Shown one piece after another: positions 3,578 through 61,706 of a stretch of DNA of 64,000 nt. Made by a program: the position numbers and the translations under genes. The stretch is from a phage. Numbering within the stretch: the first letter of the stretch is position 1; every line of letters starts with the position of its first letter. The notes beneath the pieces were generated by a model. That model had not been told where the DNA came from and did no database searches. It worked only from the letters and a program-made list of their open reading frames with translations. The stretch is from NCBI GenBank assembly GCA_025677605.1, contig GCA_025677605.1_4110.1. One strand, given 5' to 3'.

Positions 3578-3601
3578 AGTGAAAGCTTCCCTGCTTAGTG
3601 T

Positions 3602-4708: not shown

Positions 4709-4743
4709 TTTATTTGTCTCTTTGTGATTTTTGGTATGTGGTA

Positions 4744-4772: not shown

Positions 4773-4783
4773 GCTTTTTTTCT

Positions 4784-4814
4784 GAAAAAAAGAAAAGGGA
4801 CTCCGAAGAGTCCC
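4784..4814 (-). terminator. Rho-independent terminator after major capsid gene
   Basis: Minus-strand RNA: GGGACUC-UUCG-GAGUCCC (7-bp stem, UUCG loop) followed by CUUUUCUUUUUUU. Confidence 0.6.
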
Positions 4815-4837
4815 TAGTATATTTAAATTCTTTATTA

Positions 4838-7224: not shown

Positions 7225-7273
7225 TCTGTTCTCTCCTTTAAGTACTGAAATATCTGTACTTCAAATATACAAA

Positions 7274-7281
7274 TATTTATA
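7274..7281 (-). promoter_or_regulatory. Candidate late promoter (TATAAATA on minus strand) for scaffold gene
   Basis: Plus strand TATTTATA about 50 nt upstream of the 7224 start codon. Confidence 0.45.
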
Positions 7282-7292
7282 ATTTTAAAATG

Positions 7293-7913: not shown

Positions 7914-7943
7914 AATGATCTCCTTTCTTTGTTTTATTTATTA

Positions 7944-9191: not shown

Positions 9192-10919
9192 TTAAAAAGA
9201 TTCACCTAAATTATTAGGGTCAAAAGAGCCATTTCCTTGCTGATTTTGGTATTCAGCGTCAGCACTTTCCAGATTACCATCTGCATCTAATCCTAGGTCC
9301 ATACCTGGGTCATTAGGAGAGTCGATACCAACTGACTGTAATCCAGCAACATCTTCTTGTTGTGGTGCATTAGAATCTTGTGGATTCTCTTGTAACCATA
9401 GCTGTTCATTTTTAACAATATCTTTCTGGGAGAAGCCCATTTTTTCAAGGATAGTTTGTTTCGCCATATATGGTAATTCATTAAGTGGCATATATGTATT
9501 AATGAGTTTCGCATCCAATTCTGCTTTACGATAAGAAGCCAAGTTAATTGGTGGATTCATAATAACTTCAAAAGAAGAAGTACTAATGTTATATCCATTT
9601 TTTACCATAAAACGCTTAAATTCAGCATCGAAAATTTTTGCAACTAGACGCTGATAACGCATACATTGGTTATTAAAACGTAATTCACTTGCCATTGCTT
9701 GAGTTGCACCATCACCAAATAGTGATACGCCGCCGTCATCTGGACCTTGTGGAAGGTAAGATGCTGGGATTTGTAAGCCACGAATTAGTTTATTATTAAA
9801 ATATCTCAAGTCATCAATCTGACCTAAGTTATCACCACCAGGTAGTGTTTGAACATCTGAACCACGACCTTCGGAAGTTTGTGGGAAGAAATAGTCTTCC
9901 AATATACTTAGTGGGTTGTATGCTGCATCCATCAATGAAGTACTGCCACCTTTATTAGAAGGTATACGTCTTTGATGGATTTCATTTTTAAAGCGTTCAA
10001 CATATGCCATTGCTTGGTGAGTTTGCATATCACCAACATCAATTTTGAATACACGGCGTTCTGGTGCACGTTGTACACGATAGATAATAATACTATCTTC
10101 AAGAAGTTCTTTTTGTTTGTAGACTTTAAAGACATCTTCTAGTATACTTGTACCGAAAGGCCAAACTCCATCTTGTCCTGTATTTAGTGACAGATGAATT
10201 ACGTGTTCTGCACCAACTGGTATAATATCCATACGACCATTTGTATTAAATGGATCGGAACTATTACCTTGGTTGGTAAAACCAGATGCACCACCTGCGG
10301 CAACTTGACCACCACCACCTAGTGTGTTCGGTATTGCCCCTGGATATGAAGCTTTATCAAAACCAATTTGAAGGTTACTAAAAACTTTATCTTTAAGGTT
10401 AAGAGATACATCTCTTATATAGTATATTACTGGTGTTTTTCCGGTTGCTTCGTTAACAAAAACCTGTTCGACATTTTTTGGGTTAACCCAATACCAGTCG
10501 AATGTTTCTGGGTCACGAATAAAGAACTGGTCACCGTACTTAAGTAGTCCGCGAACAATTTCATACATTCTTGTTTTGAAATCATTCTGTTCAGTCCATG
10601 CATCTAAGCGGTCTTCAATAGTGGTTACTTCCGTATCACCAATATTATCTTTATATTTAATTTTATATGGTAGACCAAAATCTTCAGTACTCTGTGTACA
10701 AAAGTCAGCAATAATGTTTAGTGCCGTTCTGATTTCTGGGTCTTGATCCATCTGGTCGTATTGACTGTAACGGTCAGTACGGTTTGCCAATCCGTTATAA
10801 ACCACCGGAAGGTAGGAAGCAAAATTAGTTTTGCTCCCAGTGGATTTATTACTATTGGATTGCTGGGGTACGATCGATAATTTTGATCTTCCCATAGTCA
10901 TGTGACGTTTCCAACTCAT
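9192..10919 (-). CDS. Portal protein (gp20-like)
   Basis: IYRVQRAPERRVFKIDVGDM matches the gp20 segment [20 protein letters not shown] (from memory); 575 aa; canonical position upstream of core and protease. Confidence 0.8.
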   Translation of the reverse strand: MSWKRHMTMGRSKLSIVPQQSNSNKSTGSKTNFASYLPVVYNGLANRTDRYSQYDQMDQDPEIRTALNIIADFCTQSTEDFGLPYKIKYKDNIGDTEVTTIEDRLDAWTEQNDFKTRMYEIVRGLLKYGDQFFIRDPETFDWYWVNPKNVEQVFVNEATGKTPVIYYIRDVSLNLKDKVFSNLQIGFDKASYPGAIPNTLGGGGQVAAGGASGFTNQGNSSDPFNTNGRMDIIPVGAEHVIHLSLNTGQDGVWPFGTSILEDVFKVYKQKELLEDSIIIYRVQRAPERRVFKIDVGDMQTHQAMAYVERFKNEIHQRRIPSNKGGSTSLMDAAYNPLSILEDYFFPQTSEGRGSDVQTLPGGDNLGQIDDLRYFNNKLIRGLQIPASYLPQGPDDGGVSLFGDGATQAMASELRFNNQCMRYQRLVAKIFDAEFKRFMVKNGYNISTSSFEVIMNPPINLASYRKAELDAKLINTYMPLNELPYMAKQTILEKMGFSQKDIVKNEQLWLQENPQDSNAPQQEDVAGLQSVGIDSPNDPGMDLGLDADGNLESADAEYQNQQGNGSFDPNNLGESF

Positions 10920-10934
10920 TATATTATTAATCCT

Positions 10935-13106
10935 TTAACTATTGCGTTCACCTTGTGTATTTTCAGAAATTGTTCTTAAGTAATTATTTGTCTGATTTGT
11001 TGCTGCGAGTGATTGTTCACTCATTTCTGCTAGACGTTTAAAAATTTCTTTGATCTCTTCTGAACTCATGTCATTATTTATAGTTCCGTTTTGTGGCGTT
11101 ACCAGAGATTTTATATCACGATCTGGTTCTGGTGGGAATGGTGCTTCACCAGGTTTCCATGCGGATTTATCATAATGTTTACGAGTTAATTCCATCATAG
11201 GTGGTGTATTTGGCATTACTGTAGTCTGGACGTTTTTAGGTGGTTCATAGCCCAAGACTCGATATGCATTATCTACGTTAAATGGTCTAGGTGGTGTATA
11301 TAATTTAGAAGATTTCCATTTTTGGAAGTCAAGTGTTTTTTCTTCTACAAATTTTGTGAAATCGTCTACTGAATTACCAATAGAATCCCAGAAAGATGTA
11401 GCTTTCTCTTCTATTTTCTTTTTAGGTTCTTCTTGTTTTTCAGATTTATCATCTGAACCAAACCATCCTTTTACTTTATCCCATAACTTTCCAGGTAAAT
11501 CCATGAGATTCTTCATGAAGTCATCGAATGCTTTTGAAACTTGAGTGTATGTATCACCAAATATATCTGCACCTAATCCTTCAAGCCACAATACAAATTC
11601 ATTACCGACACGATCAACATAAGCAACTGCATCCTTGAATATTGGAACTAACCCAAATCCATCTTTAGCCAATTCCCAAATAAATCCCCATGCACTATCG
11701 GTACGATCTGCAATTGCTGTCAAATAATCAACAACATTATTTTGAACATCAGCATACATTTTATTGAATGGAGCAACAAATTCAGTACTGACCCATCTGT
11801 TCAATCTATCAGTAAATTCTGCGATTTTATCTGCTGGTCGATTTTTGTCAGCATTAATTGCAGCTTCCATATCTAACATTTGCTTAGCAAATGCGGCAGC
11901 GGTGAAGTTTTGACTTCGTTGCATATCTTCCATATCTTTTTCAACGCGTTTTCTGTTTTTCTTCACCCACTGATATTGTGCTTCACGTATAGCTTTTGCA
12001 TCGGTTACACCAGACTTAACCATGTTCTCACCAAGGTCAGCGAATTCGCTAATCATTGGAGATAATAAATCATCAGGAACACCACCAATTGATATTCTGT
12101 GGCTAATCAATCTTAGGAAATCAGTACCCATATCCCCCATACCACCTGCCGCTTCGGTAAGTGCTTTAGTGGTTAATGTTGCGGTTTCTTCTGATAGTCC
12201 CACCCAGTTGTTTAGTGTAGTTTTTAGTATTCTTGCATCAAATGATTTATCAAGTGATTGTGTCTTTTTAAGTAATTCATCAATTGACATACCCATTGTC
12301 TTACTAAAAGTAGACATAGTTTTAATTAACTCTTGGGTACTTTGTGCTTGGTTTATATTCCTTACTAGTTCTGCACCACCAAATTGTTTTTGAATTTTGA
12401 TGTTACGTGCTGCTAAATCTGATAAAGTTTTTTGTGACATACCATATAGGCCAAGTTTATCTTGGGCATTTTGAACTACACCTAACAATTTACCAAATTC
12501 CTTAACGCCATCTCCATACGAACCATCCAATTGTGCAATAACATCACTATGAGTTGATATTACTTCACTGAATAGATCCATAGACATTAACGCTGAACCT
12601 GAACCTTTTAGCAAAGAGCCATAACCTTCAGCAAGAGAAACACCCGCACTGTTGACTCTGTTGTACATTTCAAGCTGGGCGTTCATTACGTTATATACTG
12701 CCATCCCTACATCAGCAACCATTTTAAATGCTGATGCTGCCATTCCTACAGGACCGGGAATCATAGAAAGAGAGCCAGCTACGGATGATGCACTCATACC
12801 CATTGAGTTAATGACAGTACTGACATTCGCTGAAGTACTCATCATTGTTTTACCAACGTTTGTCATTTCGCTGGACATTGCTCTGAACATTTTACCCATA
12901 GAGGATGAATTACCACGAGAACCGCGTCCACCACCACTTGGTCCAGGTGAATCGCCAGGTGATGGGTTACCACCACCATTATTTTTCTTTTTATCATTCT
13001 TTAAACTTTCTGCTAACAATTCACGTATAGCTGAAAGACCATCTACGGTATCATTAGATTTATTCACTATCTGTTGTAGTAAGTAATCACTGTTGTTTAC
13101 AGCCAT
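10935..13106 (-). CDS. Gly/Ser/Met-rich virion protein (tape-measure-like or ejection protein?)
   Basis: 723 aa; N-terminal GGGNPSPGDSPGPSGGGRGSRG then Met/Ala/Ser-rich helical segments; ends 16 nt before the portal start. Confidence 0.35.
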   Translation of the reverse strand: MAVNNSDYLLQQIVNKSNDTVDGLSAIRELLAESLKNDKKKNNGGGNPSPGDSPGPSGGGRGSRGNSSSMGKMFRAMSSEMTNVGKTMMSTSANVSTVINSMGMSASSVAGSLSMIPGPVGMAASAFKMVADVGMAVYNVMNAQLEMYNRVNSAGVSLAEGYGSLLKGSGSALMSMDLFSEVISTHSDVIAQLDGSYGDGVKEFGKLLGVVQNAQDKLGLYGMSQKTLSDLAARNIKIQKQFGGAELVRNINQAQSTQELIKTMSTFSKTMGMSIDELLKKTQSLDKSFDARILKTTLNNWVGLSEETATLTTKALTEAAGGMGDMGTDFLRLISHRISIGGVPDDLLSPMISEFADLGENMVKSGVTDAKAIREAQYQWVKKNRKRVEKDMEDMQRSQNFTAAAFAKQMLDMEAAINADKNRPADKIAEFTDRLNRWVSTEFVAPFNKMYADVQNNVVDYLTAIADRTDSAWGFIWELAKDGFGLVPIFKDAVAYVDRVGNEFVLWLEGLGADIFGDTYTQVSKAFDDFMKNLMDLPGKLWDKVKGWFGSDDKSEKQEEPKKKIEEKATSFWDSIGNSVDDFTKFVEEKTLDFQKWKSSKLYTPPRPFNVDNAYRVLGYEPPKNVQTTVMPNTPPMMELTRKHYDKSAWKPGEAPFPPEPDRDIKSLVTPQNGTINNDMSSEEIKEIFKRLAEMSEQSLAATNQTNNYLRTISENTQGERNS

Positions 13107-43216: not shown

Positions 43217-44725
43217 TTGGAGAACAAAATGGCATACAGAATGTGGAAAAAAGGTAGAACCAATGATTATAAATTCATAGATTCTGCCATTGCTGAACAA
43301 TACAATATTGGTGGCGTAGACATGTGGCTTTATGCCTTTGTCGGTGCTAAACCATCAACAACTCCTAACGACTATTCTTACGGTGGTGATTATATCACTG
43401 ATGGTTCCGCTGCGTCAAGTATTGGTGACCTAATTTTTGGTGAAACCTCAAATCGTAGTTACAATCTAGAGGCTATCACACTTAGTTGTGTTTATCAAGT
43501 ACAAGAAGCAACACCTGATTTAAAAATTCCTGGGTTGTTCTTTAACTTCAACACAATGGACATTACAGTTCATTATAACACAATGATGCAGCGATTGGGA
43601 AGAAAAATTATGCCTGGTGATGTAATTGAACTTCCAAACCTTCGTGATTTCGATGTTGTTGGTAAAGATTCAGGTTTAAACCGTTTTTACGTAGTTCAGG
43701 ACGGATTTAGAACATCTGAAGGTTACTCTGCAACATGGCAACATCACATTTACAAAATTCGTGTCAAACCTATTACCGATTCACCTGAGTACGCGGACTT
43801 ACTTACTAATAATGATTATCCAGACAACCCAGATGACCCAAATAATGGTAATGGTAACAGTGGTTCCAATGGTTCTTCACCAAACAGCAGTTATGATAAC
43901 GAAATGGATATCATGAACCGTATTATAATGCAAGCTGATGATGAAGTCCCTTATATCCACTTCACAAATGAACATATATACGATGATAGACTAGATACAA
44001 CCGATTTGTCAAAGTTTGTTCTTAATGGATATGACTTCCCAGAAGAACCAGCTAACAAAATGTACTTCTTGAAGAAAACTTTACCAGTACTGAAAGAGAA
44101 AGTCAACAATTCATGGGAAAATGTTTCAGTACCGTATGGAACAACGTTTCCACGTAAACCATCTGATGGTGATTTCTTCTATAAAGAGAATGATTCAGAT
44201 GTTACTGGATATTCCCTGTATCAATATGACAAATCTCTCAAAAAGTGGCTCAATTGTGACGTTGAATACTCAACTGGTGACGTTCCACCTAATAATGCTG
44301 AGGATTTTTACATTCAATATGAAAAACCAACAATGTACCAGTACTTAGATGGTACATGGCAAGTTCCACCAGATACACATGTTAACTTACCTTTCAGTTC
44401 GAACAGCGTGTATGGTAACATAGACTCACAACAAGATTCAAGACCTAAAATTCCACCCGCTCGTGGTACTGTGCAAGAAGGAAATACTTTCCCATCTGAT
44501 CCAACTGATGGTGAATACTTCTATCGCACTGATTACAACCCTGTAACTCTTTGGGAATACAGTGAAGTTAAAAAGTCTTGGGTAATCTTTGATTATGGTG
44601 GACGTAAACCGTGGGAAGGTGCAGATTTAGCCCTAACCGAGTTCGTTAACAGTCCTAATCGTGTCCCATTACACGACGCGGCAAAACCAAACACTCTATA
44701 CCGTGCAAAAGGGGATAAAGAATGA
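43217..44725 (+). CDS. Baseplate wedge-like structural protein (tentatively gp8-like)
   Basis: 502 aa; GGVDMWLYAFVGAKP loosely resembles gp8 LGVTDMWTHMMGTVK (from memory, weak); internal repeats DGDFFYKEND / DGEYFYRTDYN. Confidence 0.3.
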   Translation: MENKMAYRMWKKGRTNDYKFIDSAIAEQYNIGGVDMWLYAFVGAKPSTTPNDYSYGGDYITDGSAASSIGDLIFGETSNRSYNLEAITLSCVYQVQEATPDLKIPGLFFNFNTMDITVHYNTMMQRLGRKIMPGDVIELPNLRDFDVVGKDSGLNRFYVVQDGFRTSEGYSATWQHHIYKIRVKPITDSPEYADLLTNNDYPDNPDDPNNGNGNSGSNGSSPNSSYDNEMDIMNRIIMQADDEVPYIHFTNEHIYDDRLDTTDLSKFVLNGYDFPEEPANKMYFLKKTLPVLKEKVNNSWENVSVPYGTTFPRKPSDGDFFYKENDSDVTGYSLYQYDKSLKKWLNCDVEYSTGDVPPNNAEDFYIQYEKPTMYQYLDGTWQVPPDTHVNLPFSSNSVYGNIDSQQDSRPKIPPARGTVQEGNTFPSDPTDGEYFYRTDYNPVTLWEYSEVKKSWVIFDYGGRKPWEGADLALTEFVNSPNRVPLHDAAKPNTLYRAKGDKE

Positions 44726-48298: not shown

Positions 48299-48796
48299 TT
48301 AAAAGTTTATTAAAATTTCTTCAATTTTTCCAGCCATACTCTTTTGAATATCAGTTGGATTCTGACTAATGTAATTACGGTCGATGCCAACTTTCAAATA
48401 TGTAAAATTACCAGTTAGTGTTTCTGCAAATGTGCCAGTTGTACCATGCTCAAGCATACTATCGCCATTATTTGGGTTGTAAATTCTGGTATCAGTAAAT
48501 TCCAGATAATAATTACATGATTCGGTAAATTTAATCGGGAACCAATCATCATCAGTTGGGTTACTAGCTAATGTTGCTAACACATAAATTCTTCCAATAA
48601 ATTCACGTAATGTGAAGGAAATTGTATGTAGACCAGTTGTACTACCATAGTAGCCACCGCTTGCCATTGGTAATGTCACTTCGTTCCAGTGATAATCGTC
48701 ATTTGATGGATACCAACTATCAGAATCTGGAAAATCCTGAATAGCTCCATCTTTTCCTTTGCGTTTGAAAAGAAAATTCTTTGATCTTAAAGCCAT
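48299..48796 (-). CDS. Hypothetical virion protein
   Basis: 165-aa ORF, first gene of the operon; late-promoter-like element upstream. Confidence 0.35.
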   Translation of the reverse strand: MALRSKNFLFKRKGKDGAIQDFPDSDSWYPSNDDYHWNEVTLPMASGGYYGSTTGLHTISFTLREFIGRIYVLATLASNPTDDDWFPIKFTESCNYYLEFTDTRIYNPNNGDSMLEHGTTGTFAETLTGNFTYLKVGIDRNYISQNPTDIQKSMAGKIEEILINF

Positions 48797-48828
48797 TGTT
48801 AAGCCCTTTTGTGTAGTGAACTTTCATT

Positions 48829-48836
48829 TATTTATT
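48829..48836 (-). promoter_or_regulatory. Candidate late promoter (AATAAATA on minus strand) for operon 48796->46573
   Basis: Plus strand TATTTATT about 33 nt upstream of the 48796 start. Confidence 0.35.
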
Positions 48837-48862
48837 ATTGGTCTTCGTTGCTGCATTGAACA

Positions 48863-48870
48863 GATAAATA
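48863..48870 (+). promoter_or_regulatory. Candidate late promoter (GATAAATA) for collagen-like gene
   Basis: About 36 nt upstream of ATG 48906; divergent from the preceding promoter. Confidence 0.35.
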
Positions 48871-48905
48871 TTCCTATATGATAACAATTCATAAAGGGAA
48901 TAATT

Positions 48906-50033
48906 ATGACAATTTCATTCAACAATGGGTCTGGCGGTTCATGTAACAATTCTGGTATTAAGAGTTTAGTAATTAACTCTGCTGGTCATTTGATTGTAAC
49001 ATTCGCTGATAATACAATACAAGATTTGGGTCTAGTCGTTGGACATGACGGTACTAATGGTAAAAATTTCTATCCTGATGATGTTGGTATGGAAATACCA
49101 GACGGTACATTTGCAGTTGATAAACCAGAAGGTTGGTGTTATTTAAGTCTAGCAAATGGAACTGCAAAACTATATTTTAAAACAAATGATGCTGGTGTAG
49201 CACCAAGTACTTGGAACACAGTAGAATTTGGTAAAGGTGATACTGGTGCACCAGGTAAATCATTTAAAATTGATTCTTCTGGTCCTGTTTTCCCAACCAC
49301 TGGTCTATTTGACCAATATACTTTCTATAATACTTCCGATGGTAAAGTGTATTTTTATAATCAAAAAGCTGGTTCATGGAGTAATGGTATTGATTTCCGT
49401 GGTGAACAAGGTCCACGTGGTCGTTTCCATATTGACAGTGATGGTCCTGCTTTCCCAAGTATTGATAACTTACCAGAAGATTATTGCTTCTATAACACGA
49501 CTGATGGAAAACTATATTACGTAGATATTAATAAGCAAACCACCCCTCCAACAAAAGAATGGAGTGAAGGTATTGAGTTCCGTGGTAAAGATGGTGAACC
49601 TGGTCCAGAAGGTAAGCAAGGTGATCCGGGTCAGAATGGTAAAGATTCAATTATCGTTGTAAACACGATTGATCATTCATGGACCAACGCAGTATTGGTG
49701 ATCGGTACATGCCCAGCAGGTTATGTAGTAACTAATATTGAAGTTGATATCACCCAAGCTTATATTGACCCTGTAACTGAAATGCACATTCGTGTAGGTG
49801 GGGAAGCACAAGAAGATATCGGTGGTACTATTATTGCACCAGTTGATTATTTTGATATCAACCGTGCACTACGCTTTATCGTTAATGAAACAAACCATGA
49901 ACCGTCAGCAGAAGATGAAATCATTGCTTGTGTTTTTAATGAATCAGTTAATAACAGTAATTATGGTCAAATGAAAGTAATTTGTACTCTAGCATGGCAA
50001 GCACCAATCCAACCAATTGAAAACAACATCTAA
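48906..50033 (+). CDS. Collagen-like repeat-containing fibre protein
   Basis: Gly-X-Y runs (FRGEQGPRGR; FRGKDGEPGPEGKQGDPGQNGKD) and duplicated motif FYNTSDGKVYFYN / FYNTTDGKLYYVD. Confidence 0.5.
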   Translation: MTISFNNGSGGSCNNSGIKSLVINSAGHLIVTFADNTIQDLGLVVGHDGTNGKNFYPDDVGMEIPDGTFAVDKPEGWCYLSLANGTAKLYFKTNDAGVAPSTWNTVEFGKGDTGAPGKSFKIDSSGPVFPTTGLFDQYTFYNTSDGKVYFYNQKAGSWSNGIDFRGEQGPRGRFHIDSDGPAFPSIDNLPEDYCFYNTTDGKLYYVDINKQTTPPTKEWSEGIEFRGKDGEPGPEGKQGDPGQNGKDSIIVVNTIDHSWTNAVLVIGTCPAGYVVTNIEVDITQAYIDPVTEMHIRVGGEAQEDIGGTIIAPVDYFDINRALRFIVNETNHEPSAEDEIIACVFNESVNNSNYGQMKVICTLAWQAPIQPIENNI

Positions 50034-50046
50034 GGGGGATTGATTA

Positions 50047-50120
50047 ATGGCAGTTTTTTCTAACTTTGAAGGGACAATGAAAACCAAGTTTATACTTGGT
50101 AAAAATGGGGCATTAATTAA
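50047..50120 (+). repeat. Shared 5' module (copy 1) of the two tailspike genes
   Basis: atggcagttttttctaactttgaagggacaatgaaaaccaagtttatacttggtaaaaatgg is ~80% identical to 52236-52300. Confidence 0.6.
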
Positions 50121-52218
50121 TTATGCTAACAATTCCCTGTCTATTACAGATAGTTTCGGAAGCATCTTATTGCCCGTACAAGTTGGTGAACCGATTAATG
50201 ATAATTCAGCGATTACTGCAAAGTATCTCGCTGACCACCCAACTGTATTATTTGGGAATGAAATCCCAGATAATAGTCTTGGTAAGGATAATTATACTTA
50301 TTTGCAATTAGACCAAGAAAGTGGTGGTATCCTAGATATTTTCGCTAAGAAGAATGGTGCATGGATAAAATCAATGTATGTTAATACTAAAGTATTATCC
50401 AGTACTAATGGTTCTGATTATATTGGTTTGGTTTCTGGTGGAACACTACAACAAGCTTTGTATTATATAACACCTGAAGAATTTGGTGCTATCGGTGATG
50501 GTATTGCTGATGATACTGACGCAGTTCAAGCTTGTGCTGATTACGCTAAAGCTCATGATATCCAAATACAAGGTAAAGGTGTTTATCGTTTATCCAAAGC
50601 AATATATTTTGAAAATATTGAATGGTATGGTGGAACATTAACTGGCACTGGTAAAACAATGATATCAGCAACCAACTGTAAAATACAAGGGGCAAACATT
50701 GCTCGTAGTTATATTCAGTTTTCTGGTGGTAATGGTAAGTTCTATTTCAACCGCTTTTATGGTACAACATTCACCTGTGCATTCTTTATGCGTGATTTAA
50801 CTTCAGAAGGTATTCTCGACTTTTGTTTCAATGAAATGTACGATGTTAACTTTGGTGTTCTACAGCAAGGTGGTAGTGGTGAAATAGTAAAATATGCTCG
50901 CTATGCATATAACCATATTCACGATATCTATGGTGATGGTATTGAATTAAACGTAGTTTCAAGACACTTCACTGATGGTCTAATCATTGAAGGAAACCAT
51001 ATTGAAAACGTTGATGGTACTAACGCTCCAATCCCACTATCAAACTGGGGTATCGGTATCGGTGTTGCTGGTAAAGGTCCATATGGAGTTGATATTCCAG
51101 ATAGTCAATATGTTAAAAACTTCACTATTGCTCGAAATAGAGTATATAACTGTCGTCAATGTATACACGTTGAAGTCGGTAAGAATTTTAATATAATAGA
51201 TAATGAGACATTTCCATCAACCACAATATCAACTGGAACTGGCTTAACTGCCGCAGGTATCATCACTTATGGATGTCAAGATTTTGTTGTTGACGGATTA
51301 ACTGGTCGCTATTTGGATGATCCAGCAACTGCACCAACAAACAGAATGATTAAATTTACATGGGGTGTTAACCCTGCTGATGCAACACACCAATATGCAT
51401 GGTATGCAGGTCCACCAAAAGATTTTAAAGTTCAAAACGTTTTCATTCCTGAATCTAGTATAGAAATATACACATCCGGTGCAAACGCATGGACTAACGA
51501 AACTGATATGCACAATATAACTTGTGAAAAATTATATTGGCGTGGATTACCATCATCATCAAAATTCAGTAAAATTTATACAAAAAATTTAGATGTAATT
51601 GGTCAATATCAAGATGGTGAAGGTGGTGGCGTTTATACCAGAACTAATTATACATATACCAGTTGGATTGGTAATATAGTTCAAGATGACGCTAATATAT
51701 CAAATTATTCATTCTCACGAATGTATGTTGATAGAATAGATCAATCTGGTAATAACTTCACGGTAACAACTGAAATAGATGGAACTGGTCACCGTGGCCC
51801 AGTACTGATACCAGTCACGGAGCAATATTATCTACCTTATGATGAATTCCCAGGTGGTAGATATTTCCCCAAAGGAACAATTTTACACAAACAATCTGGG
51901 GGTAAATATGTAGTAACAGTAGCTGGTGCATTCGTAGGAAAATATGAACAGCTTAAAGCAGCAGTAGTTGGTGCTAAAACTATTAGAACACATAACACTG
52001 CATGGGGTACAAACCAATATGCTAAAGCAGCAGGTACAAGAATTGTAATTCCTGGTGCTGGTGAAAATGGAACTGATCTCCACACTCATATAACACGAGC
52101 TACATACGTGGTCAACTCGGTATTTTGCATTGATATAGCAGATGAAATAAAAACTGCTTTCCCTGATGGGACTCCATTGTTAGCCGAATCCCCAATTACA
52201 TACATTACACTTCCATAA
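50047..52218 (+). CDS. Tailspike with pectate-lyase-like (right-handed beta-helix) domain; candidate depolymerase
   Basis: ITPEEFGAIGDGIADDTDAVQACADYAKAH is the typical start of pectate-lyase-3-type beta-helix domains; N-terminal 25 aa shared with gene 52236. Confidence 0.55.
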   Translation: MAVFSNFEGTMKTKFILGKNGALINYANNSLSITDSFGSILLPVQVGEPINDNSAITAKYLADHPTVLFGNEIPDNSLGKDNYTYLQLDQESGGILDIFAKKNGAWIKSMYVNTKVLSSTNGSDYIGLVSGGTLQQALYYITPEEFGAIGDGIADDTDAVQACADYAKAHDIQIQGKGVYRLSKAIYFENIEWYGGTLTGTGKTMISATNCKIQGANIARSYIQFSGGNGKFYFNRFYGTTFTCAFFMRDLTSEGILDFCFNEMYDVNFGVLQQGGSGEIVKYARYAYNHIHDIYGDGIELNVVSRHFTDGLIIEGNHIENVDGTNAPIPLSNWGIGIGVAGKGPYGVDIPDSQYVKNFTIARNRVYNCRQCIHVEVGKNFNIIDNETFPSTTISTGTGLTAAGIITYGCQDFVVDGLTGRYLDDPATAPTNRMIKFTWGVNPADATHQYAWYAGPPKDFKVQNVFIPESSIEIYTSGANAWTNETDMHNITCEKLYWRGLPSSSKFSKIYTKNLDVIGQYQDGEGGGVYTRTNYTYTSWIGNIVQDDANISNYSFSRMYVDRIDQSGNNFTVTTEIDGTGHRGPVLIPVTEQYYLPYDEFPGGRYFPKGTILHKQSGGKYVVTVAGAFVGKYEQLKAAVVGAKTIRTHNTAWGTNQYAKAAGTRIVIPGAGENGTDLHTHITRATYVVNSVFCIDIADEIKTAFPDGTPLLAESPITYITLP

Positions 52219-52235
52219 TAAGGAGATATTTCAAA

Positions 52236-52300
52236 ATGGCAGTTTTTTCTAATTTAGAAGGAACTTTGAAGAAGAAATTTATTCTAGGTAAAAATGGTGC
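52236..52300 (+). repeat. Shared 5' module (copy 2)
   Basis: See 50047-50120. Confidence 0.6.
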
Positions 52301-53138
52301 ACAATTCACAACAAATGGTGATATTGTGCAAATCCAAGATTATTCTGGAACACGACTTCTTCCGGTTTCTGCTGGTGACCCAACCGCAAACACACACCTA
52401 GTAACCTTAGCATATTTTAATGCTCATGGTGGTAGTGGTGCAAGTGGTATTTTGCGTGGTGATATCGCTCCTGCTGATACACTAGGAACTGATGGTGATG
52501 TTTATTTTATGGTTGATGCAACCAACATCGTTCAAATATATATTAAAGACCTTGGGATTTGGAAACCATTTAATGGTGGTGGTCCAGTAACCGATAGTCC
52601 TTATGTAACTTCATTCTCTGTCCCTGTTGCAGCATTTGTTCTTATTCCTGGAACAGTCGATGAATATACATATACCATTCCTGAATCACAACATGACCGT
52701 GGTCGTGACATTTTAGTTCAAATGGAAGATACACCAACAGACGGTAATCCAAATATTCGTAGTGTGGTTAATTCCGAAATTACAGTGTCTGGATTTGGGG
52801 ATATTACAATTAAAATGCTTGGCCTCCCAGATGGTATTACTGAGGTTAAAGTTAATATTATAGGAGCAACCGCTATGACTACCCCATACGGAAAATTGAT
52901 TAACAAAGCAGACTGGATTGCTGCTGCTGATAAATTCACTTACACTGTCACTGCTGATACACATAAACAAAGTCCTGATTCTTTGTACGTGGCAATCTAT
53001 GGTAATGATGTACCTGGTTCAACAGCATCTGCACCGTTTGATTTGGTATTCGTGGATACACAAATTGATACAGATGGTAATGTTACTTTTGTATCTGATG
53101 AACAATTCAGTGGTAAGATTGTTATCGCTGGGAAATAA
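52236..53138 (+). CDS. Second tailspike / receptor-binding protein with the same N-terminal anchor
   Basis: MAVFSNLEGTLKKKFILGKNGA vs MAVFSNFEGTMKTKFILGKNGA in the preceding gene; different C-terminal domain. Confidence 0.5.
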   Translation: MAVFSNLEGTLKKKFILGKNGAQFTTNGDIVQIQDYSGTRLLPVSAGDPTANTHLVTLAYFNAHGGSGASGILRGDIAPADTLGTDGDVYFMVDATNIVQIYIKDLGIWKPFNGGGPVTDSPYVTSFSVPVAAFVLIPGTVDEYTYTIPESQHDRGRDILVQMEDTPTDGNPNIRSVVNSEITVSGFGDITIKMLGLPDGITEVKVNIIGATAMTTPYGKLINKADWIAAADKFTYTVTADTHKQSPDSLYVAIYGNDVPGSTASAPFDLVFVDTQIDTDGNVTFVSDEQFSGKIVIAGK

Positions 53139-53145
53139 GATATAT

Positions 53146-53178
53146 GCCAGGTATGATGTCTTAGTGCCTGGCTTTTTC
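53146..53178 (+). terminator. Possible terminator after second tailspike
   Basis: GCCAGG...CCTGGC stem with long loop + TTTTTC. Confidence 0.3.
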
Positions 53179-53187
53179 ATATATACA

Positions 53188-53195
53188 AATAAATA
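53188..53195 (+). promoter_or_regulatory. Candidate late promoter (AATAAATA) for the 1847-aa fibre gene
   Basis: About 58 nt upstream of ATG 53253. Confidence 0.35.
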
Positions 53196-53252
53196 ATTAC
53201 ATATTAACACAGTTAATAAGTATTTTAATTTTACCCAAATGGAGGGAAATGA

Positions 53253-56200
53253 ATGTACTCGATAAAAACAGATCTAGCAGTAACTGGTAATACTAATGTT
53301 GGTAAAGAATTATCAGTTAAAGGTAATGCGGTCTTCGATAAAAACGTAACCATTAAGGGGACCGTTAGTTTCGCTGATGCTACCTTCACTGCAATTACAG
53401 TAGATCAAGCAACAATCAACACAACACTCGATGTTACAGGCAAAGCGTCACTTAAGGGTGGAATGGATGTACTTGGCAATACAGTTATTGGTAATACTAC
53501 TGCTGGTTCCGATACAGCAACTATTAATTCCAATGCTACTTTTAATGGCACTTCTACTTTTGCCAAAGATATTACACAAACATCAGGAAAAGCAATTTTT
53601 CAAGATACCACCACTTCTGCATTAGAAGTTAATGGTACAACAACATTAAATGGTAACCTCACTGCTGCGGCAGCAACCACTGCAAGCTTTGATAAATTAA
53701 CTGCTAATGAAGCAACCATTGCAACTGTATCAGCAACTGATATTACTGCAACTGGTGCAACCGTTGAGAATCTAACTGTAACTGGTAAATTAGATGGTGA
53801 TTTCACATTAGGGGATGTTAATACCGATAATTTAGTTGTTGAAAAACTATCTACATTAAAAGGTGCTGTAACCCTAGAATCAAACATCATTGGTACTAAT
53901 ACTGTAGCAAACCTAAAAGCTGTATCTTTGGGTTCTAATGCAGCGGATTCGACTGCACGCCTAGGCTTTGCATATACTGCTCCTGGTTTACGCCCAACTG
54001 TAATTCTACAAAACGAAGTACAGTCCGAGCTAATGACACCAGCAAATCTAACAGTACTTAAAACTGCTACATTTGGTGATGTATCAGCAGCAACCAATGG
54101 TATTACCGCAAAAGGTTTGAACCTATTTGATTACCTAACACTTTCTGGTAACTCAATACAAGATCCAACCACACCAATTCTACGTGTAACTAAAGGTAAA
54201 ACACAATTAACTGACCTACAAGTTGATGGAACTACTAATATTACTGGTAAAACTACTGTTGGTGATTTGGATATTACTGGAACACTATCAGGTAACTTTG
54301 TACTAAGTGATATTACTGCGGATAATTTAGTTGTTGAAAAACTAACTACACTAAAAGGTGCATTAAACCTAGAATCTAATATTGTTGGTTCAACTGCGAA
54401 TGCTAATTTAAAATCTGTCACTTTAGGTGGAAACGTAGCAGACACGAATGCTAAAGTTAACTTTACATATACTGCTCCTGGTTTACGTCCAACTGTAATT
54501 CTACAAAACGAAGTACAGTCCGAATTAATGACCCCAGCAAATCTAACAGTGCTGAAAACTGCTACATTTGGTGATGTATCTGCATCTACCTACGGTATTA
54601 CAGCAAAAGGTTTGAACCTATTTGATTATTTGAAAATAACTGGTAATGCGGTACAAGATCCAAATACATTAACTCTAGATGTGGATGGTAAGGCTCAATT
54701 CAAAGACGTTAATTTCACTGGTACAGTTACTGGTTTTGTTCCTGACATTTCTGGTCAAGATATTACACCTAAAGATGTAACTGCTTCTGGTAATATTAGT
54801 GGTGTTAATCTAGATGCTTCTGGTACACTAACAGTTGATGGGGATTCCGTTCTAAAAGGCACAACTATAACTGATTTGACTGTTACTGGAACTACAACTG
54901 GTATTACACTAGCTGGTCAAGACATTACTCCTAAAGATGTAACTGCATCTGGTAATGTTAAAGGTGTTGACGTAACTGCATCTGGAAACCTAACAGTTGA
55001 CGGTACTACCACATTGGTTGGTAACACGGTAGTTGATGGTTTATTTGAAGTTGTTGGTCAAACAACCACTGTTAAAGATTTGAACGTTACTGGTACACTA
55101 TCTGGTGCTGCAATTAAAGCAAACGTTGATGGTCTAGACATTCTACCTAATTCTGTAACCACAACTGAAGAAGTTGCAGTGGGGACTAATCTAAGTGTTG
55201 GTGGAAACGCACTCTTTAGTGGCTTGAAAGTTGAAGTTACTGGTAAAGTTACTGGTGTTGGTTCTGATGCATTAGAAACTGGTTCAATTGAATCTGACGG
55301 TACTATCACTGCCCCAAATATCACAGCAACTACTAAAGTGACCGCAGCTTCCGCACAAATTACCGGAACCGGAACTGGTCTAAGTGTAGATCATAATGCA
55401 TCAGTTGGTGGTGATTTAAATGTTACTGGAACTTTAACGGCTGGTGTTATTGACCTAAGTGCGGCTGATGTAACTGTTAAAACACTTGATGTATCTGAAA
55501 GTGCACATGTAGGTGGAAACCTAACTGTTGATGGTACTGTAGATTTAAGTGCAGCAGATGTAAGTGTTAAATCTTTAACTAGTGCTGGTCCTGTGATTAG
55601 TAATGATGCTACTGGAACTAACATTCTACCAAAATTACAAAGTACTGATATTACTACAACTAACAGTACAACTGGTACAGCAACAGTAACTACAGCAAAC
55701 ATTTCTACATTAAATGTTACTGGTGAAAGTACATTGGCTGCTGTTTCTGCTGTTTCTGTAACTACTCCTTCTATTGTTAATACCGATGGTATTAATTTAG
55801 AAAATGATACAGTTGCACATGGTGACCTAACTGTTAAAGGTACATTTACACCTGAAGGTGGATTAGATTTAAGCCCAGTTGATATCAGTTCTAAATCATT
55901 AACAACAACTGAAGGTGCAACCATTGGTGGAAGCTTAACTGTTGATGGTGCAATTAATGCTGCTGCGGCAGATCTAACTGTTAAATCACTAACTTCTTCT
56001 GGTGTTATTACTGTTACTGAAAATACTGAACCAAGTATTCTACCAAAACTAACAAGTACTGAAGCAACCGCTGGTAAATTGAATGTTACTGGTGATGCAA
56101 CAGTCGGTGGTAAAGCGACCGTTTCTGGTGCACTTGAAGTTACTGGTGCTTCAACATTTGGTAACGCAGTAACTGTAAACGTCGGTGGTATTACTGCTAA

Positions 56201-58796
56201 AGGTGGCTTGACTGTTGCTTCTGGAAACTTGAAAGTTGCTGCTGCGGCAGTGGTTGATGGTTCAGTAAGTGCTGGTTCATACACAAGTGCTGGAGATAAA
56301 ATAACACTAGCTAAACCAACAGATGTTACTGGTGATTTGCACGTTGAAGGTGCTTTCACTGCAACTTCCGTTGATTTTAGTACAACTGATTTAACTGTTA
56401 AATCACTACAAGTTGATAATGACGTTACTATCGATGGTAACTTGACTATCACAAATGCTGATTTGGAAACTAACTCATTAGCAAGTACTACAAGTACTAC
56501 TGTTGGTACTGACCTAATTCTAACTACTGGTACAATTACTGGTGCTCCAACAATTTCTGGTGCAACTACACTAAGTTCAACCCTACATACTGTAGGTGCT
56601 GCAACTTTTGATGGTACTGTTGATGTTGGTGGTAAAATTACTTCTAAATCAATCCAAGTAAGTGCTACTGGTGTTGGTGTAGCTGTTGATAATGATGCAA
56701 CTGTTGGTGGTTATTTGACAATTGGTGAAACATTAGGTGTTACTGGACTAAGTACTCTGTCTGGTGGGGTTGATGCAGGTTCTGCATTAATCAAAACTAC
56801 TGGTGAAGTTCAATCAGCAACTCTACAAACTTCTGGTAAAGCAACACTAGCAAGTGTTGATGTTTCAGGTGATGCAGTTGTTACTGGTGACCTAACTGTT
56901 AAAGGTGCATTTACACCTGAAGGTAGCCTAAACTTAGGTTCTGCTGTTCTAAACGTTGAAGGTGTTGATGCAAGTGCTAACTTAACTGCACTCGGTTCTG
57001 TAACTGCTGGTACTACACTAACTGTTACTGGTGTTTCAACTCTAAATGGTGGTACTAACACTACTACTCTTTCAACAAGTGGTAAAGCTACATTAAGTAG
57101 TGCGGAAGTTACTGGTGCTCTAAGTGCTGGTGGTGCTTTGGCTGTTACTGGTACTACAAATCTAACTGGAAAACTAACCGCTGGTGAAGCTGCTCTCAGT
57201 TCACTAACAGTTTCTGGTGATGTTACCATTAATGGAACACTAAACCCTGGAACATTGGATCTATCTACTACTCCAGTTGATGCGAAAAGCTTGAAATCTA
57301 GAGAAACACTAGAAGTTACTGGTCTAAGCACTCTAACTGGTGGTTTGGCTGTTAGTGCAAATACCGCAATCACTGCTGCTGGTGACATTACTGGTACTAC
57401 AATTACCACAACTGGTAAAGGTACATTTGGTAGTGCAGCGGTAACTACTGGTTTGACTGTTGGTGGTGCTTTGGTTGTTAATGGTGCATCCGTGAACATC
57501 TCTGATGCTTCTACTGTGACTATGCCTAAAGCTGATATTTCTGCGAAAGGTATTATCATCGGTCCTAAAGTTAGTTCAAGACCGGAAACTATCCAATTTG
57601 TTGGTGATACTTATATTGGTAGTAACCTATTTGTTGCTGGTAATATTAACGGTTCAGTAGATTTGGCTGGTCAGGATATTTCCCTGAACTCATTAACTTC
57701 TAATACCACAATTCACGCAGTTGAGGATATTACTACTGATGAAGATATGCACGCACGTGCTGCAACATTCGGTGCACAAGGTTCAACAGCTAACAGCCTA
57801 ACTGTTAATGGTAACGCAGTAACTACTGGCGACTTTACTGTTAGTGGTAAGATTATTGGTACACTGGACCAATCTGCAAGTGCAGTCGAAGTTAAATCTC
57901 TAACTTCTACAACCTTTATCGCTGCTGGTACAACCCTAACAGTTGGTTCAACAATCACTGCTGAAGGTTTGAGTACTTTGAAAGGTGGTATTGCAACTAA
58001 TGGTGCTACAATCAACGCTGGTGATGGTGCAATCACTACAACTGGTGATGTGTCTGGTGCAAACGTTAGTGCGTCTGGTGCAGTAACTACTGCAACTATT
58101 ACAACTTCTGGCCTAGCAACTATGGCAAGTGCTAAGATTAACACTACTCTAGCAGTTACTGGTGCAACTACACTATCTGATGTTGTTACTATCGGTAAGA
58201 AACTAACTGTTAGTACTGGTGGTATCGAAATCACTGCGGGTGGCTTCAATGTAGTTGCGGGTGGTGCAGCAATTACTGGTGCTACTAACCTTAAAGGTGC
58301 TGTAACACTAGGTTCTGCGTCTGCTGATGCAATCACAGTTACTGGTACATCTTCATTTGCTGAAAATGCAACATTTGCTAAAGATGTGACTATTGAAGGC
58401 ACACTACATACAGATATTGCTGATTTAGTAACTGAAAGTGTAACTACTAAAAAGTATGCTGTTACACCTGCTGCTAAAGTACAGGCATCTGTTGCTGCTC
58501 CAAGTGAAGGAACATGGTCACCTGATGGTGAGTCTAATGTGTACTATATTACACTAGACCAAGCATCAACTACACTAGGTCCAATTAACGGATTGATTGG
58601 AAGTGGTAAGGCTGGTTCTTACTATATCTACGTACAACAAGATGCAACTGGTGGACGTGAACTTATCACTGATGGTACTTATGCAGTAGTAGGTGGTGAG
58701 ATTAACAAAACACAAAATACAGTTAGTATCATTCAGTTGATTTATGATGGATACAGCCCAGTAGTAGATATGTTTATTGCACAACGTACTGCTTAA
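53253..58796 (+). CDS. Giant repetitive fibre protein (1847 aa)
   Basis: Extreme Thr/Val/Gly/Ala/Asn composition with recurring units (..LTVDGT..LSAADV.VKSLT..); internal tandem duplications; GGAGGG RBS. Confidence 0.6.
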   Translation: MYSIKTDLAVTGNTNVGKELSVKGNAVFDKNVTIKGTVSFADATFTAITVDQATINTTLDVTGKASLKGGMDVLGNTVIGNTTAGSDTATINSNATFNGTSTFAKDITQTSGKAIFQDTTTSALEVNGTTTLNGNLTAAAATTASFDKLTANEATIATVSATDITATGATVENLTVTGKLDGDFTLGDVNTDNLVVEKLSTLKGAVTLESNIIGTNTVANLKAVSLGSNAADSTARLGFAYTAPGLRPTVILQNEVQSELMTPANLTVLKTATFGDVSAATNGITAKGLNLFDYLTLSGNSIQDPTTPILRVTKGKTQLTDLQVDGTTNITGKTTVGDLDITGTLSGNFVLSDITADNLVVEKLTTLKGALNLESNIVGSTANANLKSVTLGGNVADTNAKVNFTYTAPGLRPTVILQNEVQSELMTPANLTVLKTATFGDVSASTYGITAKGLNLFDYLKITGNAVQDPNTLTLDVDGKAQFKDVNFTGTVTGFVPDISGQDITPKDVTASGNISGVNLDASGTLTVDGDSVLKGTTITDLTVTGTTTGITLAGQDITPKDVTASGNVKGVDVTASGNLTVDGTTTLVGNTVVDGLFEVVGQTTTVKDLNVTGTLSGAAIKANVDGLDILPNSVTTTEEVAVGTNLSVGGNALFSGLKVEVTGKVTGVGSDALETGSIESDGTITAPNITATTKVTAASAQITGTGTGLSVDHNASVGGDLNVTGTLTAGVIDLSAADVTVKTLDVSESAHVGGNLTVDGTVDLSAADVSVKSLTSAGPVISNDATGTNILPKLQSTDITTTNSTTGTATVTTANISTLNVTGESTLAAVSAVSVTTPSIVNTDGINLENDTVAHGDLTVKGTFTPEGGLDLSPVDISSKSLTTTEGATIGGSLTVDGAINAAAADLTVKSLTSSGVITVTENTEPSILPKLTSTEATAGKLNVTGDATVGGKATVSGALEVTGASTFGNAVTVNVGGITAKGGLTVASGNLKVAAAAVVDGSVSAGSYTSAGDKITLAKPTDVTGDLHVEGAFTATSVDFSTTDLTVKSLQVDNDVTIDGNLTITNADLETNSLASTTSTTVGTDLILTTGTITGAPTISGATTLSSTLHTVGAATFDGTVDVGGKITSKSIQVSATGVGVAVDNDATVGGYLTIGETLGVTGLSTLSGGVDAGSALIKTTGEVQSATLQTSGKATLASVDVSGDAVVTGDLTVKGAFTPEGSLNLGSAVLNVEGVDASANLTALGSVTAGTTLTVTGVSTLNGGTNTTTLSTSGKATLSSAEVTGALSAGGALAVTGTTNLTGKLTAGEAALSSLTVSGDVTINGTLNPGTLDLSTTPVDAKSLKSRETLEVTGLSTLTGGLAVSANTAITAAGDITGTTITTTGKGTFGSAAVTTGLTVGGALVVNGASVNISDASTVTMPKADISAKGIIIGPKVSSRPETIQFVGDTYIGSNLFVAGNINGSVDLAGQDISLNSLTSNTTIHAVEDITTDEDMHARAATFGAQGSTANSLTVNGNAVTTGDFTVSGKIIGTLDQSASAVEVKSLTSTTFIAAGTTLTVGSTITAEGLSTLKGGIATNGATINAGDGAITTTGDVSGANVSASGAVTTATITTSGLATMASAKINTTLAVTGATTLSDVVTIGKKLTVSTGGIEITAGGFNVVAGGAAITGATNLKGAVTLGSASADAITVTGTSSFAENATFAKDVTIEGTLHTDIADLVTESVTTKKYAVTPAAKVQASVAAPSEGTWSPDGESNVYYITLDQASTTLGPINGLIGSGKAGSYYIYVQQDATGGRELITDGTYAVVGGEINKTQNTVSIIQLIYDGYSPVVDMFIAQRTA
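53790..54670 (+). repeat. Tandem ~390-bp duplication inside the fibre gene (units ~53790-54180 and ~54290-54670)
   Basis: ~90% nucleotide identity between e.g. 53983-54160 and 54473-54650 (TAPGLRPTVILQNEVQSELMTPANLTVLKTATFGDVSA in both). Confidence 0.7.
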
Positions 58797-59732: not shown

Positions 59733-61706
59733 ATGTCAATTAATAGAATTCGTGGTGATGGTGGTGTTATCATAGATAGCAAAGCATTCCTTGAACTACC
59801 AAAAGCCCCAACGATAGTAACAGCAGACCAAATGCGTACAGGTATGATTCGATACAACACTGAATGGAAAGCATTCGAAGGTGTTCTTGAATTTGAAGAT
59901 GGTTCAGTTGCGTATAGACGTTTTGCGAACCTAGATGCAAATGGTAAACTATTGTCATCTCAATTACCAGATTCTGTAACAAGTGGATTGCAATTCCTTG
60001 GTACATATGATGCTATTGAAGATGATACTAACCCACCCGCATCCTATGCAGCATTACCTGCACCATCTGTTTCCTTAAATGGTGATTATTATGTAGTTCG
60101 TGGTATTATGGATGCCGCACAAGAGCACTATACACAAAATACCCCTACAACAAGTCCAGTTAAATTCACACCAGTGAACCCAACTGGTCAAGGTGATTGG
60201 ATTGAAATTCTATATTATATAGATCAAAACCCAATTGAACCAACTAAAAAATTGGTAAGTTATGCATTTGCTCGTATTGTAACAACTGCAATCCCAGCAA
60301 GTGGTCATGAAGGTCTTGTGGATTTGGCACAAGATGAATCGATCACTACACCGTTTGATACATCTTTAACACCACAAGGTCAGACTGCATTAGCTGACAG
60401 TGATTGGATTATAATCACAGAAACGAAAAACATTCGCCTACGTCAGTCAAGAGCTAGTATTTCAGCTTCTTCAGTACTGTATGATAACACTATCATGGTT
60501 GGTAGTCAACGTCAATTTAGTACCAACGCAGGTACAGTTCAAACTACCTTAGATAACCTCGTATTAGAGGGCTTACGCCGCACTGGTGACTCTATGGTTG
60601 ATGATGGACTGATAGGCAAAGGAAGACTAGGGGTAACTTATGGTAGTGCTACAGAGCCAGCTATAGGCTTTAATAACGCTCCATATGACCCAAATACTAA
60701 CCCAGGAAACGATCCAAGTAAATGGACTGACACAAAAACTGGTATTTTCCACCCAGCAGATGCCGCTATTGGTTTAACCACAGCAGGTGTTGAACGTGTG
60801 AGAGTAACAAATGGTTCTTTGAATTTATATCAAAGCACTACTACTCCCGCATCTGCACCAACATTACGTTTTGCTAATGCTTCCAACACAAACGTAGGCA
60901 TTAGTGGTGAAAATAATATTTTGTCATTTAGTTCTATGAACAAAGTACAAGTTGAAATACAAAATGGTGTAACCAAATTACATGGAAACTTAGAAGTTGA
61001 TGGTATTAGTACTTTAACGGGTGATGTTACGGCGGTTTCAAATGTTACAACTAATGGTAATTTGAACGTTAAAGGGAATACTATATTAGGAACTGGTATT
61101 TCAACTAATTTATTAACAGTTAACTCGGTGTCCACGTTTAATAAAGAAACTAATTTTAACAATGCTAATAATAATTTTAATGGAATCCTGCTAACCAGTG
61201 GTAATTCATTTAGATTTGCACACGTTACCAACGATATTAATATGAAACTACTAAACGGTGAATTGCGTATGGATGTTCGTGGTTATGCGGATTTATCTGT
61301 ATATGACAGTAATGTGTTGCGTACACGTATTAACCGTTATGGTATCCAATTACCAGTACTAACAACTGTTAATGACAGTGAAGGTGTTGATGGTATGATT
61401 GCGTACTCTGAACAGAATAGAACATCAATGCAGAAAGTTGATGGTAAATGGGTTCCGATTGGTTCTGGTACAGTAAGAACTACATTATTCACTGTTGATA
61501 ATTGGGTACTTGATGGTGCATATTACAGACTGACAGTTCCAGAAACTGATATAGTTAATGCTGAAATTCAAGAACAAGTAGCAACTGATGAATTTGTTAA
61601 AGTTGATGTTGATAGTGTTAAGTTTACATTAACTGGTGTAGTTTATAGTATTCCTTCTTCTCCTGATGTTCGTTTTGCAGGAAGAACATTAGTAACAGTG
61701 AAATAA
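59733..61706 (+). CDS. Tail fibre protein
   Basis: 657 aa, beta-rich Thr/Asn/Gly composition, fibre-like repeats (NLEVDGISTLTGDVTAVSNVTTNGNLNVKGNTILG). Confidence 0.5.
   Translation: MSINRIRGDGGVIIDSKAFLELPKAPTIVTADQMRTGMIRYNTEWKAFEGVLEFEDGSVAYRRFANLDANGKLLSSQLPDSVTSGLQFLGTYDAIEDDTNPPASYAALPAPSVSLNGDYYVVRGIMDAAQEHYTQNTPTTSPVKFTPVNPTGQGDWIEILYYIDQNPIEPTKKLVSYAFARIVTTAIPASGHEGLVDLAQDESITTPFDTSLTPQGQTALADSDWIIITETKNIRLRQSRASISASSVLYDNTIMVGSQRQFSTNAGTVQTTLDNLVLEGLRRTGDSMVDDGLIGKGRLGVTYGSATEPAIGFNNAPYDPNTNPGNDPSKWTDTKTGIFHPADAAIGLTTAGVERVRVTNGSLNLYQSTTTPASAPTLRFANASNTNVGISGENNILSFSSMNKVQVEIQNGVTKLHGNLEVDGISTLTGDVTAVSNVTTNGNLNVKGNTILGTGISTNLLTVNSVSTFNKETNFNNANNNFNGILLTSGNSFRFAHVTNDINMKLLNGELRMDVRGYADLSVYDSNVLRTRINRYGIQLPVLTTVNDSEGVDGMIAYSEQNRTSMQKVDGKWVPIGSGTVRTTLFTVDNWVLDGAYYRLTVPETDIVNAEIQEQVATDEFVKVDVDSVKFTLTGVVYSIPSSPDVRFAGRTLVTVK

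Follow-up and report, generated by a model that had tools for sequence, protein, structure and literature searches.

A stretch of phage DNA of 64,000 nucleotides (nt) from contig GCA_025677605.1_4110.1 of assembly GCA_025677605.1, referred to in its entirety as the window, carries two adjacent genes, here named A and B, whose products are, as judged from their sequences, old paralogues in their first ~105 residues only. The window is 99.7% identical at the nt level to Escherichia phage A4 (ON286972), an Asteriusvirus among the RaK2-like jumbo myoviruses, and in the annotation of that phage the counterpart of gene A (A4_571) is a 'colanic acid-degrading protein' and that of gene B (A4_570) a 'structural protein'. 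Taking the evidence together, we consider it probable that the common N-terminal part combines an anchor with a trimerisation module, that B is ancestral and A a fusion of this module to a colanidase, and that the likeness between the two was kept by selection and not by gene conversion. The two open reading frames (ORFs) are separated by an intergenic gap of 17 nt.

50047..52218, + strand: gene A (orthologue of A4_571 and 121Q gp573), ORF of 723 amino acids (aa); N-terminal module, then predicted colanidase tailspike
52236..53138, + strand: gene B (orthologue of A4_570, 121Q gp572, GAP32 gp221 and CBB_227), ORF of 300 aa; N-terminal module, then two immunoglobulin (Ig)-like domains

Genes A and B Share an N-terminal Module of About 105 Residues

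The first-pass annotation of the window had described A and B as adjacent tailspike genes with near-identical first 22-25 codons (~80% at the nt level) and different C-terminal parts. The common N-terminal peptide was confirmed, the first 22 residues of A (MAVFSNFEGTMKTKFILGKNGA) and of B (MAVFSNLEGTLKKKFILGKNGA) being identical at 19 of 22 positions and the first 66 nt at 54 of 66 (82%), with a longest exact run of 17 nt.

50047..50112, + strand: first 22 codons of A, near-invariant N-terminal peptide (identity to B as given above)
52236..52301, + strand: first 22 codons of B, near-invariant N-terminal peptide (by alignment to A; near-invariant in 35 family members from several genera)

The module is not limited to these codons, however. 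BLASTP aligned residues 1-106 of A with residues 1-109 of B (40% identity, E value 8e-19), so that in a pairwise alignment of the two 5′ ends the identity is not confined to a few residues and the homology, at ~105-110 aa, is longer than first described. The distal regions of A and B are unrelated, as had been proposed. The likeness of the N-termini is far beyond chance, because a tblastn search of the window with the N-terminal 25-mer recovered the partner gene at E 1e-9 and the next match at E >0.6. It begins exactly at the ATG codon, only 17 of the 40 nt upstream of A and B being identical, and the Shine-Dalgarno motif is the only element common to the two upstream regions. No third copy of the module was found in the 64-kb window by tblastn and by hidden Markov model (HMM) scans of all ORFs; a candidate inside a 3335-aa gene (tblastn E 0.016) was rejected for want of HMM support, and the N-termini of the nearby fibre genes at 58863, 59733 and 53253 are unrelated to the module. 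The whole phage A4 genome likewise contains two module sites only, A and B.

Within the first 22 codons, positions 1 and 2 are 95% identical between A and B and position 3 is 55% identical (35% expected by chance), and 8 of the 19 conserved codons differ synonymously. Together with the 17-nt longest run, this codon pattern indicates that the nt similarity is a by-product of purifying selection on what would be a docking peptide and not of recent gene conversion. The pattern also bears on the idea that the conserved 5′ sequence is an RNA or DNA signal, such as a translation initiation enhancer or a late-gene regulatory element, rather than part of a protein module. Such a signal would fit a similarity that sets in with the start codon and peaks within the first 66 nt, but the synonymous differences, third positions near background, and upstream regions that are unrelated save for the Shine-Dalgarno motif all speak against it, as do the continuation of the protein homology for another ~85 residues and the conservation of the peptide across genera with different codons. 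This explanation is largely refuted by the codon pattern, and we regard it as barely credible.

Protein A Is Predicted to Be a Colanidase of the phi92 gp150 Type

50356..52215, + strand: neck and predicted colanidase beta-helix domain of A, aa 104-723 (phmmer match to phi92 gp150; identity to P0005; PF27800 in homologues)

Residues 104-722 of A matched positions 17-623 of the chain of the solved phi92 gp150 (PDB 6E0V/6E0W) with a phmmer E value of 6e-216, and A matched phrog_6117 'colanic acid degradation' at E 3e-229. In addition, A is about 52% identical to the gp150-like protein P0005, its homologues carry the precomputed Pfam label PF27800 'WcaM', and PF13229 Beta_helix is present in the family member P0011. 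A beta-helix fold of A is therefore expected from the ~52% identity to a solved structure and from PF13229 in P0011. The gp150 protein is a hydrolase for which colanic acid hydrolysis has been reported (PMC13450770), and by homology A would hydrolyse colanic acid as well. A had first been interpreted as a pectate-lyase-like beta-helix and a candidate capsule or lipopolysaccharide depolymerase. The depolymerase candidacy is upheld at the sequence level by the gp150 and phrog_6117 matches, which also provide the profile support for an enzymatic fold. The beta-helix holds at the level of the fold, but the lyase assignment does not, since no pectate-lyase Pfam family (e.g., PF12708) matched A at E values up to 0.1 and the homologue is a hydrolase. 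By its homology, then, A appears to be a beta-helix glycoside hydrolase of the phi92 gp150 type and not a lyase, and its common ground with the pectate lyases is the general beta-helix fold class only.

The homology of A to B stops at residue 106 of A and the homology to gp150 starts at residue 104, with a conserved G-x-W as the fusion point. The matching region covers the whole solved chain of gp150, and the neck motif, the C-terminal region and the predicted activity are the same. The two proteins differ in their N-terminal ~100-190 residues, which are unrelated (PF26208 in gp150-type proteins, the RaK2-group module in A), and in their virions, that of A being a 350-kb jumbo myovirus and that of gp150 an rV5/phi92-type myovirus. 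Elsewhere, the colanidase domain sits behind five other N-terminal families (PF18668, PF26208, PF12571, PF03906, and PF09008). In phage vB_Ec-M-J (OQ718158), two coding sequences annotated as 'colanidase tailspike' (360 and 351 aa, at 3646-5788) were examined as a possible pair of spikes and rejected, as they represent one split gene; the split is most likely a frameshift or a sequencing error.

Protein B Is a Structural Protein with Two Ig-like Domains

52236..52571, + strand: N-terminal module of B, aa 1-112 (anchor 1-64, Gly-rich loop, hairpin 68-112); anchor HMM E 2e-33, hairpin HMM E 2.3e-23; BLASTP match to A as above
52593..53135, + strand: distal part of B, two beta-sandwich (Ig-like) domains, aa ~120-210 and ~215-300

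Protein B matched phrog_10468 at E 7e-78 and is covered over its full length in about 70-71 homologues with 47-100% identity. Searches of Pfam and of PDB sequences with B and with the profile of the N-terminal module gave no match. The distal part of B consists of two Ig-like beta-sandwiches of a generic kind, and B is therefore no tailspike enzyme. The description of the pair as two tailspikes thus stands for A, a colanidase tailspike by homology, but not for B, which belongs to a core virion-protein family present across all RaK2-like genera. B is an orthologue of GAP32 gp221, CBB_227, and 121Q gp572 (phrog_10468), with no substantial difference from them. One orthologue, CBB_227, was found in CBB virions by mass spectrometry, with 5 peptides and 32% coverage (PMC5259590). 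A family listed in databases just as 'structural protein' is now resolved into an N-terminal module and two Ig-like domains.

Two further observations concern B. Its Ig-like domains (52593-53135) may be a diverged internal duplication with a common 'Y-T-(I/V)...H' motif, although the local alignment score is low (42). Also, NCBI lists P0030, a protein with 100% identity to B, under 'Escherichia coli'; it comes apparently from a jumbo-phage genome deposited within a bacterial assembly.

The Module Consists of an Anchor and a WW-like Hairpin

50047..50238, + strand: anchor sub-module of A, aa 1-64 (beta-meander 14-34, extended segment, helix 58-63); anchor HMM E 2e-29
50245..50373, + strand: WW-like hairpin or putative trimerisation sub-module of A, aa ~67-109, ending at the G-A-W junction

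A search of 1.84 billion representative proteins with the profile of the module gave 410 matches and split the module in two. A homologue search with the same profile had yielded short proteins only, and the range of architectures described here came from the exhaustive search of representatives. The first part, the anchor (positions 1 to ~65), stands at residue 1 of ~25 protein clusters of 111 to 1366 aa, and in a family alignment of 35 members its residues 1-21 (MAVFSNLEGTMKKxFILGKNGA) are almost invariant across genera. Besides stand-alone proteins of 111-141 aa, the carriers include the B-type proteins (~290 aa), A (723 aa), a Beta_helix protein of 705 aa, a Peptidase_S74 protein of 780 aa, and BNR-propeller proteins of 1200-1366 aa. 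Two tailspikes of a single uncultivated phage, P0129 and P0138, have the anchor in common (40% identity over ~150-175 aa). Their genes lie at 1431-3773 and 10001-12118 of the 120-kb Logan contig L009 (SRR18476386), and one carries a Peptidase_S74 domain and the other a Beta_helix domain. Both matched the anchor profile derived from A, B, and related proteins (E 8e-18 and 2e-14, respectively; HMM scan E 8e-27 and 8e-24), and their N-termini bear the precomputed label Pfam PF27114 'Phage_tail_beta', for which no match is listed among the homologues of A and B in the precomputed tables. Residues 1-110 of A and B showed no sequence or fold match to the N-terminal domains of the T7 fibre (PF03906), the P22 head-binding domain (PF09008) or the CBA120 tailspikes (PF18668). 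Since the anchor occurs with many distal domains in other phages and the colanidase domain occurs behind other anchors, the first-pass proposal of exchangeable modules is supported to the extent that modules have been exchanged over evolutionary time.

The second part (positions ~65-108) is a ~40-residue WW-like hairpin unit, 'G-x-DGD-x-Y...W', found elsewhere as arrays of 4-14 tandem copies in fibre proteins and collagen-like proteins. An AlphaFold2 (AF2) model of residues 1-112 of A, with a predicted local distance difference test (pLDDT) score of 86.9 overall and of 84-92 for residues 11-64, shows a meander of three strands (14-34) that leads through an extended segment to a short helix (58-63) and then to a hairpin domain of four strands (67-108). 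In this model the invariant residues 1-10 have low confidence and are not confidently placed, which would fit a peptide that becomes ordered only in a complex. The best structural match of the hairpin half is the trimerisation domain of collagen XV/XVIII (multiplexin), to which it is weakly similar, and a BFVD search yielded the orthologue of B together with collagen-like proteins. Such structural resemblances are weak and no more than suggestive.

Distribution of the Module and History of the Locus

48906..50033, + strand: 375-aa 'tail protein' (phrog_13565, E 6.5e-198), with WW-like hairpins and short collagen runs
53253..58796, + strand: proximal subunit of the long tail fibre, 1847 aa (phrog_4549, E 1e-177; annotation)

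In the window, the gene order is tail protein, A, B, and long tail fibre, and the same order is found in 121Q as gp574-571. The B family keeps its place in the gene order, with the tail protein gene on one side and the long fibre gene on the other. In a set of 50,697 phage records, only RaK2-like jumbo phages carry the module, with two copies in 121Q-type Asteriusviruses and one elsewhere. In GAP32, CBB, and EJP2, the tail protein gene is followed by B and then by the long fibre gene, without a colanidase, which indicates that A is an addition to the ancestral locus. In RaK2 and K64-1, the module alone has been kept, as a protein of 115 aa (RaK2 ORF061w; NC_019526, positions 8001-8348 of L003); these phages lost the distal part of B, the long fibre, and the next gene. 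The neighbouring RaK2 ORF060w is the orthologue of the window gene at 59733-61706 (45% identity). Stand-alone modules of 111-117 aa are present in metagenomes as well (P0101, P0105, P0106, and P0109). The conservation of the stand-alone form in RaK2, K64-1, and metagenomes implies that the module is retained for a function of its own. ORF061 does not feature in the RaK2 paper, and the fEgEco12 paper makes no mention of the A and B genes.

A metagenomic protein of 792 aa, P0004, consists of the N-terminal module (residues 1-104, E 9e-26), a colanidase, and a C-terminal part (710-792) matching residues 218-300 of B, its last Ig-like domain (E 2e-13), and the sequence suggests a B-type scaffold that took up a colanidase, an intermediate form. 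Its gene (6320-8698 of the Logan contig L005, SRR31729320) lies after the distal fibre gene and before thymidylate synthase, at another place in the fibre cluster than that of A.

With regard to the age of the duplication, all B-type modules fall outside the clade that the A-type modules form. The module of A in phage A4 is 42% identical to that of its own B, 43% to that of GAP32 gp221, and 44% to RaK2 ORF061, and over the first 22 aa the identity is 86%, to its own B and to GAP32 alike. The paralogy of A and B must be old, because the module of A is as close to the GAP32 and RaK2 copies as it is to that of its own neighbour.

Recombination Between the Two Copies

The first-pass annotation had also suggested that the repeat could mediate recombinational swapping. 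In this reading, the ~66-nt repeat would be an active recombination substrate through which receptor-binding cassettes are exchanged or lost, be it from one gene to the other or among phages that infect the same cell. The 5′ ends are indeed 82% identical over 66 nt, in direct orientation and 2.2 kb apart, the colanidase gene is present or absent at precisely this position among related phages, and anchors and distal domains have clearly been reshuffled on long time scales. Against this, the longest exact match is just 17 nt, the excess of identity at codon positions 1 and 2 over position 3 means that the similarity is held at the protein level, and the copies in GAP32 and RaK2 are as close to A as its own B is, the A-type modules being monophyletic. 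Within Asteriusvirus, moreover, the N-terminal module (48% identity between A4 and 121Q) and the catalytic domain (57-69%) diverge together, and both genes are present in every 121Q-type genome, although exchange between the copies would remove the colanidase. A comparison with related phages, as the first-pass annotation had recommended, did reveal the presence or absence of A and a variety of domains behind the anchor, but no swapped cassette within Asteriusvirus, where the domain-wise identities contain no discordant block. Patchy megablast coverage was considered as a sign of cassette replacement and rejected, as it reflects an overall divergence of ~73%. Taken together, these data leave the swapping claim unsupported, and we judge active recombination at the repeat to be quite improbable; over deep evolutionary time, modules have nevertheless been reshuffled. 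The first-pass interpretation as a whole is thus partly supported.

A Proposed Role for the Module in the Virion

In the mechanism that we propose, the anchor (~65 residues) would dock both proteins onto a conserved site of the baseplate or fibre complex, and the WW-like hairpin (~40 residues, ending in G-x-W) would nucleate or lock the trimer. B would be the ancestral, group-wide short fibre or adaptor. A duplicated B-like N-terminal module would then have joined a horizontally acquired colanidase domain to give A, an Asteriusvirus-type addition placed between the tail protein gene and B, although this order of events is our inference. Mounted on the virion by a like anchor, A may break down the slime of colanic acid with which E. 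coli, by overproducing it, defends itself against phages, and the other steps of adsorption would fall to B and the long fibre. A candidate docking partner is the 375-aa tail protein, because its gene is always directly upstream of the first anchor-bearing gene, because the protein itself contains WW-like hairpins and collagen runs, and because it is abundant in virions, its counterparts having been found in abundance by mass spectrometry in phAPEC6 and CBB.

A different account would make the module a mere folding or trimerisation device or an assembly-chaperone tag, with A and B attached in some other way or A a free, non-virion enzyme. It draws on the trimerisation domain being the best structural match of the second half of the module, on the repetition of the hairpin in non-phage collagen-like surface proteins, and on the virion proteome of phAPEC6, in which mass spectrometry listed the flanking gp253 and gp256 but not gp254 (the colanidase orthologue) or gp255 (the B orthologue). 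The strongest conservation, however, is at the extreme N-terminus (residues 1-21) and not in the hairpin, and RaK2-type phages have conserved the module in a stand-alone form of 111-117 aa, which has no distal part to trimerise. Furthermore, the B orthologue is a virion protein in CBB, and phi92 gp150 and all other carriers of the catalytic domain have virion-anchor N-termini. On balance, we consider this account unlikely, and an anchor combined with a trimerisation module remains the reading that we favour.

Neighbouring Genes

The 375-aa tail protein (48906-50033) contains three WW-like 'Y-x-Y...G-x-W' hairpins between short collagen G-X-Y runs, with weak matches to Pfam Collagen and WW, and the part of the A/B module that forms the hairpin matched it weakly in tblastn. 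A similar 'Y-x-Y...G-x-W'-like motif is also visible in the protein encoded at 43217-44725. The repetitive 1847-aa fibre protein (53253-58796) has a solved relative, the 'Putative tail fiber protein' of PDB 9cuy_g/9mjn (E 1.6e-26), and several long antisense ORFs inside its gene (e.g., 55391-56452, 353 aa) are probably artefacts of repetitive composition. In a promoter and terminator scan of 48700-53400, nothing relevant to A and B exceeded the shuffled background.

Implications for RaK2-like Jumbo Phages

Systems of several tailspikes with shared N-terminal attachment domains are well known and include TSP1-4 of CBA120, gp63.1 and gp66 of G7C, the adaptor of K1E/K1-5, the anchor-branch receptor-binding proteins of Klebsiella phages of the KP32 type, and the multi-depolymerase sets of K64-1 and RaK2. 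The design is the same in all of these, with a common N-terminal part and differing distal parts, and the pair A and B is a clear but ordinary example of this modular receptor-binding protein design; the principle is not new. What the analysis delimits is the anchor, the putative trimerisation module, and the exact fusion point at G-x-W, which is a rational site for domain swapping.

Going further, it is possible, though we put it forward tentatively, that the ~65-residue anchor with its invariant 21-residue peptide defines a universal docking socket of RaK2-like jumbo phages that has to be filled at all times, and that any trimeric receptor-binding domain can be plugged in after G-x-W. Such a need would account for the 115-aa version that RaK2 and K64-1 conserve on its own. 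If this is true, the anchor would constitute a previously undescribed family and offer an engineering handle for retargeting jumbo phages, and P0004 and gene A would record the insertion of a colanidase into a B-type scaffold. Two reports describe colanic-acid overproduction (mucoidy) as a common escape route of E. coli from phages (PMC12753057, PMC12057083), and a virion-borne colanidase would bear directly on the use of Asteriusvirus jumbo phages in therapy. Finally, the finding that the same anchor carries very different receptor-binding domains in uncultivated relatives leads to testable hypotheses on the tail-fibre architecture of the RaK2-like phages.

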